Positions 1-62,512 of a stretch of 64,000 nt of DNA are shown one piece after another (the stretch's first letter is position 1; the number at the start of each line of letters is the position of its first letter). The notes under the pieces were generated by a model. The model made no database searches. It saw only the letters and a program-made list of their open reading frames with translations, and was not told where the DNA came from. Both the position numbers and the translations under genes were made by a program. Origin of the DNA: a virus (lineage: Duplodnaviria; Caudoviricetes); IMG/VR virus record IMGVR_UViG_3300016263_001265, positions 20,617-84,616 of that record; one strand, 5' to 3'.

Positions 1-87
1 GGAGCAGACCGCGAGACATGCCGTCAAATATCCATGAGTCGGGAAGTTCGTTGTCTACAGAGTTCCATAGTTCGTCGAGCGGGTGTT

Positions 88-747
88 TCACTTTTCCCCC
101 TTTGTGATGATCTGGTTTGGCTCGTATGTCCATGCGTCCTGGTCGCCGAGCGGACTGAAGCGCTCACCCTCTGCCGAGTATTCGACCGTGCTGACCTTGA
201 AGTCCGGTGTCTTCTTGTTCTTGAATACCAGCGCCTCGTCGTCCCACAGGATGCGGTTGTTCGGCTGGGCCGCGAACTGTCCGTTCTCCAGTCGGATGAA
301 ATTGTACGACTTGTGTTCCGACGGAAGTCTCGAGTAGCCCGTGTCTAGCTCGTTTGGGTCGCCCTCGACAAGGTCGACAGTGAACATGTATGTGCCGTCG
401 TGCCACGAGCCCTTGGTGTCGCGGAACTTGCACCCCATCCCCTTGAGGAACGACTTCTCTATGACAGAGATCGCGTTCGTTCCGACATCCCAGAGTTGCA
501 GTGTTCCGAGCGGAAGGTCTGGGCTTGGGGTTCTAGGGCTCGTGGTGAATGCGCTGATCGGCAACTTGTCGTACAGCGCGCCGTATTCCGGCAGAAATGC
601 TTCGATGTAGAGTGCGCGGTGCCTCAGCGCCTTGACAGAAACCCAGTAGCACGGGGTGAACTCGCCGTGACCATCCTGCAGGTCGCGCAGGTACTCCTTG
701 CGGACATAGCAGGAAATCGGCGGAAGGTTGGCAAGCGGCTGCGGCAT
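88..747 (-). CDS. conserved phage hypothetical protein
   Basis: 219-aa ORF co-oriented with its neighbours, with a globular-looking composition; no catalytic motif recognised. Confidence 0.6.
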   Translation of the reverse strand: MPQPLANLPPISCYVRKEYLRDLQDGHGEFTPCYWVSVKALRHRALYIEAFLPEYGALYDKLPISAFTTSPRTPSPDLPLGTLQLWDVGTNAISVIEKSFLKGMGCKFRDTKGSWHDGTYMFTVDLVEGDPNELDTGYSRLPSEHKSYNFIRLENGQFAAQPNNRILWDDEALVFKNKKTPDFKVSTVEYSAEGERFSPLGDQDAWTYEPNQIITKGEK

Positions 748-7513: not shown

Positions 7514-7659
7514 TATTTTCTTTTTCGCCCATTCTTCTTCTTCTCAAGGTCTCGCTCTTCAAGCATAGACTTGGTGGCTGGAATCTCTCCGTTTTTTCTC
7601 ATCACCTTGCAGGGAATGCAAAAGCATGGCTGCTGGTGATAAAGCTCACGACTTGCCAT
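7513..7659 (-). CDS. small basic protein with CxCxxC (48 aa)
   Basis: Hand-translated MASRELYHQQPCFCIPCKVMRKNGEIP...KKKNGRKRK; overlaps the portal stop and the HNH start (TAATG). Confidence 0.5.
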   Translation of the reverse strand: MASRELYHQQPCFCIPCKVMRKNGEIPATKSMLEERDLEKKKNGRKRK

Positions 7660-9826
7660 TTCTTTCTTTCGCCTCGACAGATCTCATTACCTTGTTTGAC
7701 CATGCCTTCCCCGGGTCTCCGCCCCAGAGTGCCCAGGCGATTCTGCCAGCAGAGGGGAATCCCTTTTGGCCTGGTGCCCATCCCTCTCCGCGCTTGTCAA
7801 CCTCGTGCCTGGCAAGGTAAGAGCGCATCTTTCTAACTCTGGCAATCGTCATCTTGTTGCCGATGAGCATTCGTGCGGTCTGCTGGCCAGGGCCAATTCC
7901 TCCGCGGCCAAACTCTCTTCTCCAATCAAGGCCACGACGCGCTTCTGACTTGACCCCAGATGGCACGTTCAGGTTTATTCCGTCTGCGTTTTGCTTTTCA
8001 ACATTTGCAATATTTTTTGCATTCGGATAGGAGGCGGCATATGCCTTTGCGATCTCTTTGTCCTCGTCATAGAAGGCTACGATTTCGTATCCGTTTCTTG
8101 CCGCCTTCTGGGCCTCGTATCGCTTGAACTGCAGCGTTGCATCTGAAGGGAACGTGTTTGGAATGACCTCTTCTACCCTGATTCCGCAATCCTCCATCAT
8201 GCCCTTGACCGCTTCGTTGTCGATCTTTGACTTCGTGATCGCAATGACGTGAACACCGGCTTCGATGTACATGTCAATTTCATCTATGACCTCAGAGGGG
8301 CAGTTTTCGCTTGCCACGTCGTCTGACTCGATAATGATCGCGGACTTCTTTCCCGATTGCTGTCTTGCATTCATATCTGGATTTGGCCTTTCTTCAAGCT
8401 GGTCTTTTCCTTGTGCACCCGGGCCGCCCCTCTCGTTGCCGCCAGGGCCTGGCTCGCCACCAACAGGCTCTGGGTTGCTCGGGTCTCCAACCTTGCCCTT
8501 GAGGTACAGCTCGTAATACCTCAAAGGCATGTAGCCCAACGGGCTTGGCATCCAGATCTCGTTGCCCAAATCGCCAACGGAATCCTGTCCGCGCTCCTTG
8601 AGCGCGTCATTGAGCCTGAGCCACGGCAGGCCAGCAAGCGCTGCCTTGTAGTAGTCCGCAACCGCCTGTGCCGACTCCCTGCCGACATCCGTGTATACAA
8701 ACCTAAGGTTTTTGTCGTACAACCAGACGATCTCGCGGGTAATGTAATCCGCGATCAGCTCGCATAGCGGTGCGATACCGTTGTCGGCAGTGAATGCCGC
8801 GCCGTACTCGGATGTGCTCTTGTTAACGTCAAAGTTCAAGCCGATGTCTTGCGGCTGCACGCCAAACACGGCACAGATCTTCCTCGCGAGGTAGATCTGC
8901 CATTCCATGAACTGCATGTCGCGGTTTGACTGGGCCATTGGAATCCACTTAACGCCCTTACCACCACCAGTAATGGCCGTCTGGCTCTTTCCGGCAATTT
9001 CGCCTTCCCAATATGACTTGAATGCGTCGACCTGGTCTGGCCTCACGCCCTCGCCCAAATCGATAATTCCAGGAGGCGTTGCCTGCTCGACAATGTTGTT
9101 GTTGTATTTCGCGGCCCTAAGATCCGCCTCAATTGTCTCCGCAAGGACTTCCAGCGGTGAGAGCCCAAGCGGGGAATACGTTACCTTGTTGGCAACAATG
9201 ACAACCATCTCTTCGTTCTTGTATTCGGCAACGACCTTGCCGGTGTCGTCGTATTCGTAGTACCTTGGCTTCTTGATGTTTGAGCCGTCCCAATTTGGAT
9301 CAAAAGCAATCCTTGATCCGTCTTTTGGCCAAAGGTTTTTGATCGGGTCCGAAGACTTTCCGGCTCGCGCCCCGACCGTCAGCTCCTTTTCAATGCATCC
9401 CTGATCAAGAACAAGAATGTCTTCGACAATCGGCTCAATGAAAGATCTCCACGAATCCATTCTTGTATTTGGATCTCTTAAGAGCGTTTTAATCTTCTCT
9501 ACAGCAACTGCGTTTGGCGTATTTTCTCCGTCAACCGTGACAATGTCCCACCTGGCCCTGCTGATCTGCTGTCTTCTAAGATTGATGGCGGCACGAATCC
9601 AGGGGTTGTTTCGCGACCACTTTCGCAGCATGTTGACAGATCGTTTCTGCACTGCGCTTTGACCGGCACCTCGCGCGTACGGCTGCGCGTCATAATTAGG
9701 AATAAGAATTGCGTCTTTTATGGCCTCAACATCTGCTGCGGCTTGCGTTTCTGTTTGGGTGCGCTTAATGCGCTCCCACGGCATCATTACCACGTAATCT
9801 GCTCCTTCGGCTTTCTTGTTCGCCAA
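7646..9826 (-). CDS. portal protein with C-terminal accessory domains
   Basis: HK97-like portal motifs (GLSPLEVLAETI, PPGII, FKSYWE, DMQFMEWQIYLARKICAVFGVQPQDIG, LRLNDALKERG) followed by about 280 extra aa. Confidence 0.92.
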   Translation of the reverse strand: MANKKAEGADYVVMMPWERIKRTQTETQAAADVEAIKDAILIPNYDAQPYARGAGQSAVQKRSVNMLRKWSRNNPWIRAAINLRRQQISRARWDIVTVDGENTPNAVAVEKIKTLLRDPNTRMDSWRSFIEPIVEDILVLDQGCIEKELTVGARAGKSSDPIKNLWPKDGSRIAFDPNWDGSNIKKPRYYEYDDTGKVVAEYKNEEMVVIVANKVTYSPLGLSPLEVLAETIEADLRAAKYNNNIVEQATPPGIIDLGEGVRPDQVDAFKSYWEGEIAGKSQTAITGGGKGVKWIPMAQSNRDMQFMEWQIYLARKICAVFGVQPQDIGLNFDVNKSTSEYGAAFTADNGIAPLCELIADYITREIVWLYDKNLRFVYTDVGRESAQAVADYYKAALAGLPWLRLNDALKERGQDSVGDLGNEIWMPSPLGYMPLRYYELYLKGKVGDPSNPEPVGGEPGPGGNERGGPGAQGKDQLEERPNPDMNARQQSGKKSAIIIESDDVASENCPSEVIDEIDMYIEAGVHVIAITKSKIDNEAVKGMMEDCGIRVEEVIPNTFPSDATLQFKRYEAQKAARNGYEIVAFYDEDKEIAKAYAASYPNAKNIANVEKQNADGINLNVPSGVKSEARRGLDWRREFGRGGIGPGQQTARMLIGNKMTIARVRKMRSYLARHEVDKRGEGWAPGQKGFPSAGRIAWALWGGDPGKAWSNKVMRSVEAKERNGKS

Positions 9827-10718: not shown

Positions 10719-12779
10719 ATGATTTTGGACTTCAAGATTTACACCAACGCCCTTAAGGCATACGAGTCAGAAGAGGGTGAAAAGTTCGTTTCGGGAACCA
10801 CATCATCAACCATTAGGGATCTCCATGGAGACGAGATGTCTCTTGATGCCCTTAAGAGCATGGCGGACACCGCAAGACAGAACATGACGGTGTTTCTAAA
10901 TCACAACTACAATGTTCCAGAGGATCTTTTTGGCTCAGCTACAAGCGCAGATATTGTTAAGCGATACGACCAAGAAAGTGGCCAGGAAGTATATGACCTC
11001 GATCTCAACATCCGCGTTGTTGGCGAGGATGAAAACCCAGAGGCAATGCGAGCGTATCGCGCAATAAAGAGAGGCGTAAAGCTTGGATTGTCCATTGGCG
11101 CAAGAGTTGAGAAGGCAAAGAGAAAGGCCGCAGAAGATGGCAAACCTGAATCAATCTTGATTGAGAAAGTGAGGCTTCTCGAAGCCAGCGTTGTTGGCAT
11201 TCCAGCCAATCAGAGATCCTATCTGCAAAATGCCGTCAAGAGCCTGAAGTCTGCAACGGAAATTGACAGCGATGTCTTCGTTGACGAGCCGTCAGACGAG
11301 AAGGCCGCGAAGTACAGTGTTGGCGACATGGTTCGCTGGGGGTCAAGCGGCGGCGATGCCACCGGCAAGATCACAAAGATAGTTTCAAACGGCAAACTTG
11401 ATGTGCCAGGCTCTTCATTTACAATAAACGGAACACCAGATGACCCGGCCGTCTTGATCCGCGTCTACAGAGACGGAAAGCCAACAGAAACTCTTGTTGG
11501 CCACAAGATGTCAACTCTTAGAAGCGCCAAGGACGCTGTTGAGGTAATCGACTCGGTAAAGGCTGTTGAGGTTGAGGGTGAAACTTCCCCCGAGAAGGCG
11601 CCGCTTGTCGGTGCGCTTTACAACCTTCTTGCCGAGGCCACTGCATTCTATCTTAAGGCTCACGGCGCCCATTGGAATGTTATTGGCGATGACTTCGCCA
11701 CCTATCATGATCTTTTTGGTGAAATCTATGAGGATGTGCACGGGTCTCTTGATCCGATTGCAGAAAGCCTCAGAAAGCTCAACTCTCCGGCGCCCGCTGA
11801 GTTGAAGGATCTTGCCAGAATGACAGTTTCCAGCGAAATTGCCGAGGATTATGAGGCCGAGAGCCTTGCCGCGGCACTTTATGCTGCAAACGAGTCCCTT
11901 ATTGAGGTGATTATGGTTGCCTTCAAGGCTGCCACCGATCAAAACCAGCAAGGGATTGCAAACTTCCTGGCAGAGCGTCAGGACATGCACCAGAAGTGGT
12001 CATGGCAGCTTCGCTCCTCGCTTGCCGAGGAATCCGAAGAGGAAACCGACGGAGTGTCGGGTGAACAGTCCGATGAAAATAGCGACGAGCAGGAGAAAAA
12101 TATGGACAACGATTTGGAGAAGAAGACTCGCGTCACCGTCACGGTAAGCACCGACGGCGACGAGAAGCAGCCAGCGGCAGTCGCCGCGCAGCCAGAAGCA
12201 GCTGACCAGGATGTCACAGAGGACAAAGAAGAGGTCAAGGCTTCTGCTGAGCCGGGTGACGGCGAGGCGGCAGAAACTGTTGAAGAGGAAGTCGCGGCAG
12301 AGGAGACCGAGAAGGATCCATCTGTCGAGGCCCTTGAGGCGCTTGGCGCCACGCTTGTCGAAGCCGAGAAGTCGGCCGACGGCGAAAATGAATCGTCCGC
12401 ACAGCCAGAAGTGGCCGAGGCGGAAGTTGTTGCCGGGGCGGCCGAAGAGGTCGTTGCGGCGGCGGAGAATGTCGAGGCTGACGAGGCCCCGTCGATAGAC
12501 GAGGTTAAGTCAATCGCAAAGTCCGCTCTCGATGCAGCCAATGCTGCCCACGAGGAGGTCGCTGCCCTTTCGGCAAAGGTGACCGAACTTGCTGAGGCCA
12601 AGGCCAAGGTCGAAGAGGATCTTTCGAAGGCGCTGGACCTTATTGAGCGCATTAGCGCACTTGGGGTTGGCCGAAAGTCTTATGACCGTCCGCAGGAAGT
12701 TCGTGTGAAGTCACCGGAGCTTGCTCCGTGGCTGAGCCCATATGTACAGCGCGTTCTTGAAGCGCGCGATGAGGAGTAA
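10719..12779 (+). CDS. prohead protease-scaffold polyprotein with Tudor-like and Dps domains
   Basis: HK97-type protease motifs (RDLHGD, FLNHN, GLSIG, LLEASVVGIPAN) in the first ~175 aa; KYSVGDMVRW...VGHKMSTL domain; Dps motif HWNV...H...D-x-x-x-E; acidic coiled scaffold-like C-terminus. Confidence 0.92.
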   Translation: MILDFKIYTNALKAYESEEGEKFVSGTTSSTIRDLHGDEMSLDALKSMADTARQNMTVFLNHNYNVPEDLFGSATSADIVKRYDQESGQEVYDLDLNIRVVGEDENPEAMRAYRAIKRGVKLGLSIGARVEKAKRKAAEDGKPESILIEKVRLLEASVVGIPANQRSYLQNAVKSLKSATEIDSDVFVDEPSDEKAAKYSVGDMVRWGSSGGDATGKITKIVSNGKLDVPGSSFTINGTPDDPAVLIRVYRDGKPTETLVGHKMSTLRSAKDAVEVIDSVKAVEVEGETSPEKAPLVGALYNLLAEATAFYLKAHGAHWNVIGDDFATYHDLFGEIYEDVHGSLDPIAESLRKLNSPAPAELKDLARMTVSSEIAEDYEAESLAAALYAANESLIEVIMVAFKAATDQNQQGIANFLAERQDMHQKWSWQLRSSLAEESEEETDGVSGEQSDENSDEQEKNMDNDLEKKTRVTVTVSTDGDEKQPAAVAAQPEAADQDVTEDKEEVKASAEPGDGEAAETVEEEVAAEETEKDPSVEALEALGATLVEAEKSADGENESSAQPEVAEAEVVAGAAEEVVAAAENVEADEAPSIDEVKSIAKSALDAANAAHEEVAALSAKVTELAEAKAKVEEDLSKALDLIERISALGVGRKSYDRPQEVRVKSPELAPWLSPYVQRVLEARDEE

Positions 12780-12782
12780 AAA

Positions 12783-14018
12783 ATGTCTGAAGTAAGAGAG
12801 AAGCTTCAGGACGTTGCTAAGGGACTTGATTCCCTTAATGACGCCCCGATTGGCAGAGAAATCGATACGGAGAAGAAGTCATCGTTCGATCCCGCCGAGG
12901 CCTTCGCCGTTCAGCGCGAGCTTCGCAAGAAGTTCTCAAAGCTGTCGACGATCGAGCTCAACGAGATGCTCGATGTTCAGGCCTCGACCCAGGCTGGCAA
13001 GCAGGCTGACTCAGCCGTGCTCAATCAGCTTGCGATGTCGAACCCACAGATTGCAAAGGCCCTTGATAGCTCGGCCGGTACGGCGCTTATCCGCCAGGAC
13101 CTCGAGCCAATCCTTTACAGCCTGTTTGTAAAGAAGTTCCCGTTCTTTGAGCGCATCCGCAAGGAGCCTGCAAACGGCCTCGTGCATGCGTTCAACCAGC
13201 AGACCGCCTACGGCGACGCAGTCTTCCAGACGGAGACCGGCACCGTGACGGACGATACCGCGACCTACAGCCGCCAGACGACCAATGTGGCCGTTCTTGC
13301 GACCCGCCGTGGTATCACGCTCAAGAATCAGTTTGCGCTTGGCCAGGGCGGCTCGCCGTTCAATGGCCTTTCGCAGGAGCTTGGCAGCGGCGTGACCGCC
13401 ATTGCGCACAAGCTTCAGAAGACCCTGTTCCAGGGCAACGCAACCGTCACGGCGAGCGCCGGATCCAACACCGAGCTTGGTGCTTATGACGCCAACTCGT
13501 TTGATGGTCTCCGCAAGCTCCTCGGGACGGCCGCCTCGGCTGGCAACGAGATCGTTGGCAAGGGTACGGCTTCGTACCTCTCGACGATCAACACGGCCGT
13601 CGCTGGTGTTCTGGACAACGGTGGCGCTCCGTCGGCCATCGTCTGCACCCCAACCGACTACGCTGGCCTTGTAAACGAGCTTACAAACCTCGTCCGCTAC
13701 AATGCCCCGTCGCAGGTTGACCAGGCTGCAGGCGCAACCTTCGGTTCGGTTGTAACGGCTGCGGGTTCACTCCCGATTCTTGCCGTTCCAGGCGATGCCA
13801 TTGGTCAGTACGCAATCTCCAGCACGGACTACCGCGATCTTTACATCGTGGACGAATCCGGATGGTCGATGCCATACCTCGGATCTGACTCGATCACGAC
13901 GCTCGAGATTCCGATTGGTGTCAACGGTGCCCTTACGCGCCTCTACATCATGTATGTGATGTTCGGGTTTGCCAACAAGGCCCCGCAGTTCCAGGCGAAG
14001 GTTCGCGTCACGGTCTAA
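12783..14018 (+). CDS. major capsid protein (HK97 fold)
   Basis: 411 aa directly after the protease; LIRQDLEP, FDGLRKL, PSAIVCTP, F-x-N-K-A-P motifs; GC-rich codon usage. Confidence 0.92.
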   Translation: MSEVREKLQDVAKGLDSLNDAPIGREIDTEKKSSFDPAEAFAVQRELRKKFSKLSTIELNEMLDVQASTQAGKQADSAVLNQLAMSNPQIAKALDSSAGTALIRQDLEPILYSLFVKKFPFFERIRKEPANGLVHAFNQQTAYGDAVFQTETGTVTDDTATYSRQTTNVAVLATRRGITLKNQFALGQGGSPFNGLSQELGSGVTAIAHKLQKTLFQGNATVTASAGSNTELGAYDANSFDGLRKLLGTAASAGNEIVGKGTASYLSTINTAVAGVLDNGGAPSAIVCTPTDYAGLVNELTNLVRYNAPSQVDQAAGATFGSVVTAAGSLPILAVPGDAIGQYAISSTDYRDLYIVDESGWSMPYLGSDSITTLEIPIGVNGALTRLYIMYVMFGFANKAPQFQAKVRVTV

Positions 14019-18605: not shown

Positions 18606-21600
18606 CTATTTCCTGTTTTCCAGTTCTGCGATCTTTGATTCGGCCAAAGAAAGTCTTGCCCTTGCGTCCTTTAGCGAGGATATCAGCGCATATGCAATCT
18701 GATAGATGTCTATTCCGGCAATCGTATCTTTTGTTTTTGGCGTCATGGCAGAAGGAAGAACGGACGCAATCTCTTGCGCGATTACGCCTATGGATACTCC
18801 CTCCTTTGAGGGGGTAAAGTACCCTTCTGACCTTACCTTTTCCAGATCCCACTCAAATGAGTATATGTTTATCTTGTCTATTGCCGAAGGGTCGATTTGA
18901 TACAAAGATATGTTTTTCTTATAGTCTGCGTCAGAAAACGAGTTGCTTGTGCTCAATGTGCCCCTAATCAGCAGGCCGCCGGTTTCATTCAAGACCATGT
19001 TTTTTGTCAGCGATGACCCGTTCCACTCGCCAAATGTTACCGACTCTCCGCTCGGAACAGCAAAGTCACCCTCTGCACCAGAGGCGGAAACATACAGTGC
19101 TGGCGCCCCACTTGGGTTCAAGTTGACGTTTTGCATAACCGCATCAACGGCTGTTAGCGTACCTCCGTTGCTTACGTCAAAGTTGCCTCCTATTGACAAG
19201 GAACCGCCTGTAATCGTAATGTCAGATGCGGAAACCGCCCCAGCAGTGTCTACGGTGAATGCATCGTTGATGTTGATTGATCCGCCAGTAATAGAGCCAC
19301 CTGTAACGTCAATATTTGCCGCCGTGACTGCACCTGAATTTGAAACCTGAAAATCACCGCTTCCAAAATTTATTCCGCCACCGGTTATTGTAATGTCACT
19401 CGCGGTTACCCTTCCGTCAAAGTCCACAGTGAAATTAGGGGAAGATATTGCAAGGTCGTCAACCTTGATTTCTACCGTTCCTGTGATTTGCGTCAAAGGA
19501 ACAGAGCCGCTTGAGTTGCTTGTAAACCTGATGACTCTGCCGTTTGACACCGTACCGTTCGTGTCGGACTGCGGGGTGATGTCGCCAGCGGATAGATTAA
19601 ACAGCCTTATAGTTCTTCCAGTTGTTGCCGATGCATACGGAGATATCGAGGTGAGTGAGACGGGCGTTGCCGCAGATGTCGCGTGCGTGTAGTTTATTGT
19701 CCTGTAGTTGTTGAACGAGCCACCGCTGGCAGATCCTGGCGTGACAAATGCGGCTGTCAGTCCTGATACAACCAGAGTCTTTCCGTTGTCAACTTTTGCC
19801 CCAGACAAAACCTGCGTATCAGACACTGGAACTAGTGCCACGGGCGAACCACCAGTTCCAGCAGATATTGGAAGTGTATAGGTTACAGAACAGTAGTTTG
19901 TCGCGTACGCCGCAGTCGTTGTGGCAATGTTTATGTTTGAACCGGCAGCAAGATACACATAGAAGTTTTTCCCAGTGTCGGCAATCCCAGACGCCGCTGT
20001 CAATGCAACGTTTGGCGTGTTTAGCGAGTATGTGAATGTGCTTGGATTGTTTCCAGAAGGAACGGTTGCAATAAACGATCCGCTGTACGGGACGGGCAGG
20101 CCGGTGATTTTCACCGTGTCGCCGCTCAATATACCATGCGCCATTGCCGTTGTTATTGTAACCACGTTGCTCGTGACTTGATATGATATTATGCTTGCTC
20201 CGGTTCCAACAACCTTTTTCCCTCCGTTGTAGTCACTGGCGGCACCAGAAATAGAAACGTAGTCTCCGTTTTTAAATGCAACGGGGGTAGATGTAGAAAA
20301 TATACCGTATCTTACCGGCGGAGTAGAGTCGTATACAGCGATTGCAAACGTGGCGACTGTATCTGATGGGGTATATGCCCATACACCTGGATCGTCTGAT
20401 GTTGCTGTTGTCAGGGTTTTTGTTGCAAGTGCAATTGTTGCGTTTGTTCCGGAAGTGTTTGTTCCATGTTTGGAAAAACCAAGAAGTGAGTATCCTGCAG
20501 GTGGCGTTACCGAGGTGACGTTTACGTCGTCAATTGCAAGCCCGGTGAGGATGACTGCGTTCTGCGTTGATCCAGGAACAGTTACAAGACCGGGATCAAC
20601 AGTATTGCCAGTGTTGACATACGTAGAAAGAGCAATCGTTCTTCCGGAACCGCTAGACCTAAAGACCTGGGTTCTTGCGACTGTTGCGGTGCTTGTCCCG
20701 GTGACTACAAGGGTTGGAACCGTTACGCCCGATTGAACAGTGTAAGAAAACAGAGAAACAGAAGGATCTGATCCACCTGTATTTGATCCAACCTTTACCC
20801 ACCCAACGCTTGTCGTTGCGTGCTGTGTTCCAGTGCTTTCGTCAGATGCAACCGCGCAAACAATGAGGTCTCCAACCTTGAGATCTGCTGCCGCTGGAGG
20901 CGTAACCTGCACAGATGTCGTACCAGTTGCCTGAGTTGTCAAACCGGAAACCACGCTTATTGACGGAGGAACAGAAGAAATATTGAAAGCTTGCGTCCTT
21001 ATGATTGGAGAGTCTGTCCTTGTTGCGGTAAAAACCCCGTCATACGGAGACCCAAGGCCAGAAACCACTATCGTCTCGTTTGCCGATATTCCGTGATACC
21101 TTGAAGTTCTTATCGTGGCAACGTTTGATACTCGGGAATAGTCTTCGACCGCAGATCCAAAGTCATGCGCTGTCCTGGTGCCATTTATTCCGGCAGTTCC
21201 TGTTGCAAGGATTTCAACGGAGTCTCCAGAGACAACCGAATGGGGAGTCGTAGAAACAAGAGTTGCGTACGTGTCTTGTCCTTGCGTCGGGACAAGGTCT
21301 GTGCCGAGGGCAGTCGGTACTCCCTGCGCCTTGAGCGCAGTGGCGTTCAATATGCTTCCTATGGACGTGGCTGTCGTGTTGGCGTCTGTGTCTGCACCCG
21401 TTATTGTTACCGAGTTTCCAGAGTCAAAGGCGTGCCAGTTGAGCGTTCTTACCGACACGGCTGATCCCCACTTGGTTTTGTGGGTAACGTCTTCGTCGGT
21501 GTGCTCAGCCGGAACGTCGGTCAGATTCATCGACGTATCTATTCCAGTTATCGTCACAAGCTGACCAGGAGATATTGCGTGTTCCTGGTTAAGCGATATT

Positions 21601-56110: not shown

Positions 56111-56186
56111 GCCGTCGTAGCTCAGTGGATAGAGCAGCTGCCTTCTAAGCAGTTGGTCGCAGGTTCGATTCCTGTCGACGGCGCCA
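56111..56186 (+). tRNA. tRNA-Arg(UCU)
   Basis: GCCGTCG/CGACGGC acceptor stem, D arm, anticodon loop CTTCTAA, GGTTCGATTCC T arm, encoded CCA. Confidence 0.95.
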
Positions 56187-62436: not shown

Positions 62437-62512
62437 GGGGACGTAGCTCAACGGTTAGAGCACTGAGCTTATATCTCAGCGGTTCCTGGTTCGAATCCAG
62501 GCGTCCCTACCA
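62437..62512 (+). tRNA. tRNA-Ile(UAU)
   Basis: GGGGACG/CGTCCCT acceptor stem, discriminator A, CCA; anticodon stem CTGAG/CTCAG with loop CTTATAT; GGTTCGAATCC T arm. Confidence 0.92.

Follow-up and report, generated by a model that had tools for sequence, protein, structure and literature searches.

Nested protease/scaffold genes are known from phage lambda (C/Nu3), phage Mu (I/Z) and the herpesviruses (UL26/UL26.5), and the internal proteins of phage T4 enter the capsid by means of a capsid-targeting sequence. As in T4, effectors ride on a head-internal carrier in the MuF-fused polymorphic toxins (PMC5576092) and the polyvalent proteins (PMC5512222). In the encapsulins, a ferroxidase of the ferritin superfamily is sent inside an HK97-fold shell by a C-terminal extension or fusion, and the encapsulated ferritin-like proteins form small oligomers and no cages (PMC11202242). 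The locus described here lies in a stretch of 64,000 nucleotides (nt) of a virus of the Caudoviricetes (the window; positions 20,617 to 84,616 of the IMG/VR record IMGVR_UViG_3300016263_001265), where a Dps (mini-ferritin) domain is part of a prohead protease-scaffold polyprotein. We consider this domain, with a probability of about 0.6, to be a ferroxidase cargo that the prohead takes up and that maturation cleavage then releases.

The polyprotein gene resembles the lambda C/Nu3 type in that one reading frame, immediately followed by the capsid gene, encodes an N-terminal protease and a C-terminal scaffold, and differs in the one or two folded modules (Tudor, Dps), combinatorially variable, that stand before the putative nested start. 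With respect to the encapsulins, sequence and model make the scaffold tail a plausible counterpart of the cargo-targeting segment. The targeting part here is, however, a protease-linked scaffold that is normally removed, and the shell belongs to a true virus, which has a portal, a terminase and a tail; the encapsulin shells, encoded in cellular operons, have none of these. The ferritin is of the Dps type, not EncFtn or IMEF, and as a phage cargo it would have to coexist with, or yield to, 85 kb of DNA. Compared with the passengers of the MuF and polyvalent proteins, the carrier is a protease-scaffold and the putative cargo an antioxidant/iron enzyme, not a toxin or an anti-defence enzyme; neither Dps nor ferritin is mentioned in PMC5576092 or, by text search, in PMC5512222.

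Phage-encoded proteins with the Dps fold also occur as separate genes, outside any head-assembly protein, namely gp67 of the Kuravirus SU10 (BFVD match A0A0B4N267, template modelling (TM) score 0.80), PHROG 3636 and a protein of Synechococcus phage S-SRM01. Escherichia phage SU10 shares the capsid protein family PF17236 with the window phage. Its gp67 is a middle gene, conserved in all phages of the C3 morphotype, and was found by mass spectrometry only in an unpurified polyethylene glycol preparation (PMC4281155); a text search of the cryo-electron microscopy study of the virion gave no mention of it (PMC9509320). A ferritin-like protein was also detected by mass spectrometry in Vi01-like phages and discussed in connection with tail entry (PMC10892097), but it is another protein, and the idea is another one too. 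An earlier sequence-only reading of the window, made by a model from the letters, was not aware of the arrangement having been described as a virion system, and our literature searches agree with it, as they turned up no Dps in a protease/scaffold protein or as a capsid cargo. A 2026 paper speculates, without going further, on scaffolds that retain a biochemical function and on procapsids as reactors (PMC13669383). Dps cargo in a protease-scaffold appears to be a variant of the known capsid-cargo systems that is widespread in uncultured phages.

The Dps domain and its ferroxidase ligands

The sequence-only reading had placed a complete Dps domain at positions 11601-12023 (aa, amino acids, 295-435), embedded in a prohead protease-scaffold polyprotein, and both parts of this claim hold. 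The profile search that it had proposed as a check gives a match of PF00210 (Ferritin) to aa 299-436 (E value 7.7e-8), with 32.8 bits against a curated cut-off of 24.5 bits and with profile positions 3-137 of 142 covered. The phage Dps-like family phrog_3636 matches with an E value of 2.3e-25. In a phmmer search with a 149-aa piece, the best PDB match is Pseudomonas aeruginosa Dps, 8ff9 (E value 1.6e-19, 33% identity), and the top PDB matches all carry Dps or Dps-family names. The AlphaFold2 model of the same piece has a predicted local distance difference test score (pLDDT) of 91 and consists of four long helices (residues 5-30, 36-63, 90-117 and 121-146 of the piece) with a short helix in the BC loop (72-76). 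The lack of a four-helix Dps fold had been named as a point that would speak against the idea; the model is a four-helix bundle, which Foldseek superposes on ~30 Dps crystal structures with TM scores of 0.86-0.89 (0.86 for 8ff9). Sequence and model together confirm aa 291-436 as a genuine Dps domain. Its embedding in a protease-scaffold polyprotein is correct because Peptidase_S78 and Hva1_TUDOR domains lie in the same open reading frame (ORF), directly upstream of the capsid gene. Public annotations of such proteins read 'DNA-binding protein Dps' or 'Prohead protease', and pass over the fusion without comment.

The four residues H318, H330, D345 and E349 show the +12/+15/+4 spacing of the Dps ferroxidase ligands, as had been noticed from the letters alone, and are identical in the alignment with 8ff9. 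Together with W319, they are invariant in all 82 unique Dps domains of the relatives. The ferroxidase centres of Dps are inter-subunit sites, with ligands from two subunits. In the AlphaFold2 model, H330 is separated from D345 and E349 by 15-19 residues along one helix, so that a four-ligand metal site would need a partner subunit. Conservation of the domain as a whole is close to that of the protease: among 28 full-length relatives the mean frequency of the top residue is 0.82 in Dps and 0.81 in the protease, and invariant columns make up 35% of the Dps domain, which equals the protease and exceeds the scaffold and its helix.

The likeness to cellular Dps (8ff9, Listeria innocua Dps) thus comprises the four-helix bundle, the BC-loop helix and the H/H/D/E ligands at the same spacing. 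The cellular proteins are free and about 150 aa long, whereas here the domain sits within a head-assembly protein of 686 aa. The phage domain is also acidic (isoelectric point (pI) 4.7, net charge -11), its flanks are acidic or neutral linkers, and neither domain nor flanks carry the Lys-rich terminal tail by which Dps binds DNA. DNA binding is therefore unlikely; a DNA-binding Dps was rejected, and the database label 'DNA-binding protein' is not supported for this domain. A further difference is found at the start of the pore helix, where 8ff9 has the acidic stretch S-D-E-P-T-A-D, whose Asp residues line the iron-entry pore, and the phage domain has N-Q-Q-G-I-A-N. N409 and Q411 are each retained in 81 of the 82 relatives and N415 in all of them. 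The motif is kept in stand-alone phage-type Dps as well and, by its sequence, marks a distinct phage Dps subfamily.

Dps as an optional module and on other carriers

A large protein collection yielded 561 relatives of the polyprotein, with a Dps domain in 113 of the 120 listed; the protease-Dps fusion is accordingly not rare, with at least 113 proteins (90%-identity clusters). Close relatives, in which protease (aa 1-185) and scaffold (aa 459-686) are almost unchanged, differ only in the middle, where the architectures are protease-scaffold, protease-Tudor-scaffold, protease-Dps-scaffold, protease-Tudor-Dps-scaffold, protease-Dps-Tudor-scaffold and protease-Tudor-Tudor-scaffold. In one Dps-less protein (P0039) the first 16 residues of the Dps domain remain as a deletion scar. 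A 79-kb contig with neither Dps nor Tudor (L001) encodes a capsid protein 93% and a portal 85% identical to those of the window. Among the IMG/VR relatives, the near-complete Dps-less genomes have no ferritin-like gene anywhere, and the complete Dps-bearing genomes have exactly one, inside the polyprotein gene. In the tree of protease plus scaffold, whose sample is biased towards Dps because the query itself had Dps, the Dps-less proteins (19 of 118 rows) are scattered over most major clades, and the branches with good support require Dps to have been gained or lost at least 14 times. As relatives with a 93%-identical capsid protein are without Dps and have none elsewhere in the genome, Dps appears as an optional passenger, a cargo and not a structural part.

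The Tudor module behaves as a second mobile passenger: relatives may lack it, have it once or twice, or have it behind Dps. Some relatives (P0085, P0093, P0096 and P0019) have, behind Dps or where Tudor would stand, an extra module with the motif 'WDGAAAK..IF.WAG' and no Pfam match.

The same type of Dps was found on other carriers by an exhaustive search of 1.84 billion cluster representatives (50%-identity clusters), which gave 3909 matches. Among the best 150 of these, 62 contain a phage-type Dps, and 54 of the 62 are multidomain. The Pfam partners in the 54 are Peptidase_S78 (17 proteins; best E value 1.6e-49, canonical HK97-type proteases), XkdF-type S78_2 (3), Phage_Mu_F (2), HAD acid phosphatase (4), zeta-toxin kinase (3), Tudor (3), RelA_SpoT (1) and WGR (1). 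One locus, L042, is an HK97-like siphovirus head module with terminase, portal, HAD-Dps-S78 protease, Phage_capsid, connectors and tape measure. Phage-type Dps fused to Phage_Mu_F (P0195) also lies in a head module; in the locus L006, MuF-Dps stands right behind a 635-aa gene without a Pfam match, which is taken as the portal because of its position after the terminase. Phage-type Dps recurs in fusion with capsid-internal carriers of unrelated phages (HK97-type S78, XkdF and MuF). Further architectures with phage-type Dps in other phages (P0145, P0155, P0174, P0178, P0250 and P0274) are tandem Dps-Dps, XkdF protease-Tudor-Dps-zeta toxin, Dps-zeta toxin, HAD-Dps-S78, DUF5824-Dps and Dps-WGR.

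Proposed loading into the prohead and rival explanations

The scaffold module begins with M462, whose ATG follows a Shine-Dalgarno (SD) sequence in the same layout of SD, spacer and ATG as at the start of the capsid gene itself. M462 is invariant among the close relatives, every inserted module lies upstream of it, and in a subgroup with other amino acids at this position the start is GTG. At the DNA level, GGAG or AGGAG with a start codon 6-8 codons before the conserved TRVTVTV is present in 13 of 16 loci, a count of limited weight, since Glu-rich coding sequence yields GGAG-like words by chance. For this reason we rate translation of the scaffold alone from M462 as likely and go no further. 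A promoter/terminator scan gave no internal promoter before M462 and no other signal that would decide the matter. Were the nested start real, the gene would be a pair of the lambda C/Nu3 type in which a cargo slot separates the protease from the nested start, and Dps would be made at the copy number of the protease, not of the scaffold.

The mechanism that we propose starts from such a pair, in which the scaffold would also be made alone, as with lambda C/Nu3. The scaffold end of the polyprotein would co-assemble with free scaffold and capsid protein and in this way take protease, Tudor and Dps into the prohead. The activated protease would then cut at conserved motifs in the linkers, for which A282-V-E284, [D/E]-K293 and A436-x-E438 are candidates, and free an acidic Dps of about 16-20 kDa. 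Dps would pair across the two-fold axis (at least as dimers, possibly as 12-mers), forming the inter-subunit ferroxidase sites, which would consume Fe2+ and H2O2 beside the DNA, either within the virion or, once Dps is ejected, in the next host. Co-assembly of Dps in the prohead, which the sequence-only reading had supposed, stands in so far as loading is, by inference, well supported by the position of the domain between the protease and a scaffold tail common to the close relatives, by its being an optional module and by the recurrent capsid-internal carriers; most likely, the enzyme is loaded into every new capsid. For its later fate, we considered that Dps is kept in the filled head, ejected with the DNA or lost with the scaffold. 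That in a large group of freshwater phages it stays in the DNA-filled heads as dimers or 12-mers, oxidising Fe2+ with H2O2 beside the genome partly in the manner of an encapsulin, seems rather unlikely. A Dps 12-mer of ~9 nm (PMC11202242) would be too large for the capsid pores, through which a monomer could perhaps pass.

Several observations weigh against a packaged ferroxidase. The acidic three-fold iron-entry pore, a typical though not a defining trait of Dps, is absent here, and with Asn and Gln in place of the acidic residues the classical, cage-type uptake of iron may not apply. The function of Dps is dispensable, as it has been lost repeatedly. No junction motif shared with the N-termini of the capsid proteins was found, and the cultured-phage collection contains no full-length relative of the polyprotein, its matches being solely Tudor-like pieces and a 26%-identical cyanophage Dps. 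In SPP1, Gp7, the MuF protein that has been studied best, is bound to the portal and found at only 1-2 copies per capsid (PMC5576092), a number hard to reconcile with a 12-mer in the MuF-Dps lineages. This copy number and the neutral pore residues suggest that Dps may work as a small oligomer. No cleavage site can be assigned, because the capsid N-terminus is conserved throughout and 'EKK', which was tried as a cleavage word, is deleted in one locus (L003); 'A-x-E' and '[D/E]-K' stay as candidates only.

Dps could instead act only in the infected cell, late, by buffering iron or peroxide; the fusion would then merely provide late and abundant expression, and Dps entering the proheads would be cut up or expelled with the scaffold, with no role in the particle. 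The Kuraviruses, which are distantly related and have the SU10-type capsid family, suggest such an intracellular role and thereby count against packaging, since their stand-alone Dps-domain protein is a conserved middle gene (PMC4281155). Phage infection also induces the host dps and catalase (PMC7354516), and an acidic Dps with an acidic tail resembles scaffold material displaced by DNA. On the other hand, an enzyme that is tethered, and is made only as infection ends, would buffer the cytoplasm poorly, and Dps is never a separate gene in this lineage. Since, in addition, the fusions of unrelated lineages are made specifically to capsid-internal carriers and not to cytoplasmic proteins, we regard a purely cellular role as improbable.

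The invariance of the four metal ligands and of W319 in 82 relatives bears on two other explanations, in both of which catalysis has no part. Dps might be loaded and freed as an inert folded filler or leftover that is tolerated in the head. Its repeated loss without a change of the capsid protein and the non-canonical pore residues would fit, but the share of invariant columns, equal to that of the protease and above that of the scaffold, and the retention of Dps in every major clade of the family would not, and this explanation has little probability. Alternatively, a Dps oligomer could make the polyprotein a multivalent hub, by which the scaffold core is nucleated or its size set: 12-mers are known for Dps proteins (PMC11202242), Dps serves as a fusion scaffold elsewhere (Dps-spike chimeras are among the PDB matches), and long flexible linkers are found at both termini of the domain. 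Such a hub needs no invariant ferroxidase ligands, however; the order of the modules varies, with Dps before or after Tudor or, in L042, N-terminal of the protease, and Dps is not needed for assembly in relatives that share the scaffold tail and whose capsid protein is 93% identical. A structural organiser is for us a very improbable role, and Dps as an essential scaffold hub was rejected, as Dps-less relatives exist.

If Dps is indeed loaded as an enzyme, this would be the first case in nature of a scaffold bringing a redox or iron enzyme into the capsid of a tailed phage, and a concrete system in which the proposed kinship of scaffold proteins and encapsulin cargo could be tested. It would suggest that free virions in lake water are truly under selection by oxidative and iron damage to their packed DNA, and would place iron in the capsid in addition to the tail, to which the Ferrojan Horse idea assigns it (10.1101/674382). 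Should Dps be retained, each virion would have a Fenton shield of its own and possibly hundreds to thousands of iron atoms; such virions would amount to an unrecognised colloidal iron pool and to a living link from phage scaffolds to the cargo proteins of encapsulins. Foreign proteins could possibly be loaded into capsids by use of the cargo slot that lies between protease and nested scaffold.

Modules of the polyprotein and surrounding genes

The features of the locus are collected in Table 1. The full-length AlphaFold model, built on 28 relatives, shows folded modules strung on low-confidence linkers (pLDDT <50). In the protease, Peptidase_S78 matches with an E value of 1.5e-7 and 32.1 bits (cut-off 21 bits), and the head maturation protease family phrog_80 with 8e-10. 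H36, H62 and S125 are invariant in the 28 relatives and are candidates for the catalytic residues. A PDB sequence search with the protease piece gave no match and one with the Tudor piece only chance-level matches. In the cultured-phage collection, the closest matches of the Tudor module (DUF2945-like) are a hypothetical protein of Limnohabitans phage DC31 (54% identity) and a region annotated as major capsid protein in Roseobacter phage CRP-811. Where Dps passes into the spacer, A436 and E438 are invariant or near-invariant in the relatives. The scaffold module, with a pI of 4.2, is common to all architectures, with or without Dps.

Table 1. Features of the polyprotein locus and of the window (positions are those of the window; residues are those of the polyprotein unless another protein is named)
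Feature	Residues	Position	Strand	Evidence or remark
Portal protein		7646..9826	-	Phage_portal, E 1.4e-39 at aa 76-410; phrog_2859 at aa 606-722
Portal C-terminal extension, roughly 300 aa	430-726 of portal	7646-8539	-	phrog_2859 (unknown function); contains 'PSAGRIAWALWGGDP'
Polyprotein gene, protease-Tudor-Dps-scaffold, 686 aa		10719..12779	+	Single open frame; Pfam S78, Hva1_TUDOR and Ferritin
Prohead serine protease domain	1-185	10719..11273	+	Peptidase_S78 at aa 55-176; phrog_80
Protease as modelled	1-161			Full-length model
Low-confidence linker	162-196			Full-length model
Tudor-like beta-barrel module	197-268	11307..11522	+	Hva1_TUDOR at aa 202-254, E 4.9e-8
Tudor-like beta-barrel, strands	204-263			Full-length model
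Low-confidence linker	272-288			Full-length model
Dps (mini-ferritin) domain	291-436	11589..12026	+	Pfam, PHROG, PDB and AlphaFold
Dps as modelled	291-435			Full-length model
Ferroxidase ligand codons	318-349	11670..11765	+	H318 11670-11672; H330 11706-11708; D345 11751-11753; E349 11763-11765
N409-Q-Q-G-I-A-N415	409-415	11943..11963	+	Aligns with acidic S-D-E-P-T-A-D of 8ff9, start of pore helix
Acidic disordered spacer	437-461	12027..12101	+	pLDDT <50 from aa 438; net charge -11
Long acidic low-confidence stretch	438-590			Full-length model
Internal Shine-Dalgarno, AGGAG		12091-12095	+	6-nt spacer before ATG of M462
ATG of M462	462	12102-12104	+	Putative nested scaffold start
Scaffold module	462-686	12102..12779	+	Disordered acidic part, helix 593-647, C-terminal helix 674-685 (APWLSPYVQRVLE)
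55-residue helix	593-647			Full-length model
Terminal helix	674-685			Full-length model
Major capsid protein, SU10-type HK97 fold		12783..14018	+	PF17236, E 9e-10; phrog_752
Fibre, 2218 aa		18606-25262	-	Peptidase_S74 chaperone domain at end
ORF of 3474 aa		25263-35687	-	Sole Pfam match tape-measure-like TMP_3, aa 1731-1868
tRNA-Arg(TCT)		56111-56186	+
tRNA-Ile(TAT)		62437-62512	+

The virus record is a complete genome of 84,616 bp with direct terminal repeats. It probably comes from a freshwater metagenome: one freshwater sequencing run is the probable source, one lake run contains 30% of the sequence words, and the shares in all other runs are small and carry no weight as evidence. The capsid gene begins 4 nt after the stop of the polyprotein gene, and the portal gene is divergent from the polyprotein gene. 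A Pfam scan of the window ORFs identified a head-tail adaptor and the large terminase as further virus genes; none of the ORFs scanned was recognised as a tail tube or sheath gene. A HAD-like identity of the portal C-terminal extension is not supported, as a Pfam search with the C-terminal 297 aa gave no match. A 377-aa Dps+Tudor protein of another phage (P0160) ends in a motif nearly identical to the one that the extension contains (Table 1), and for this reason the extension may be a third mobile head-internal module.

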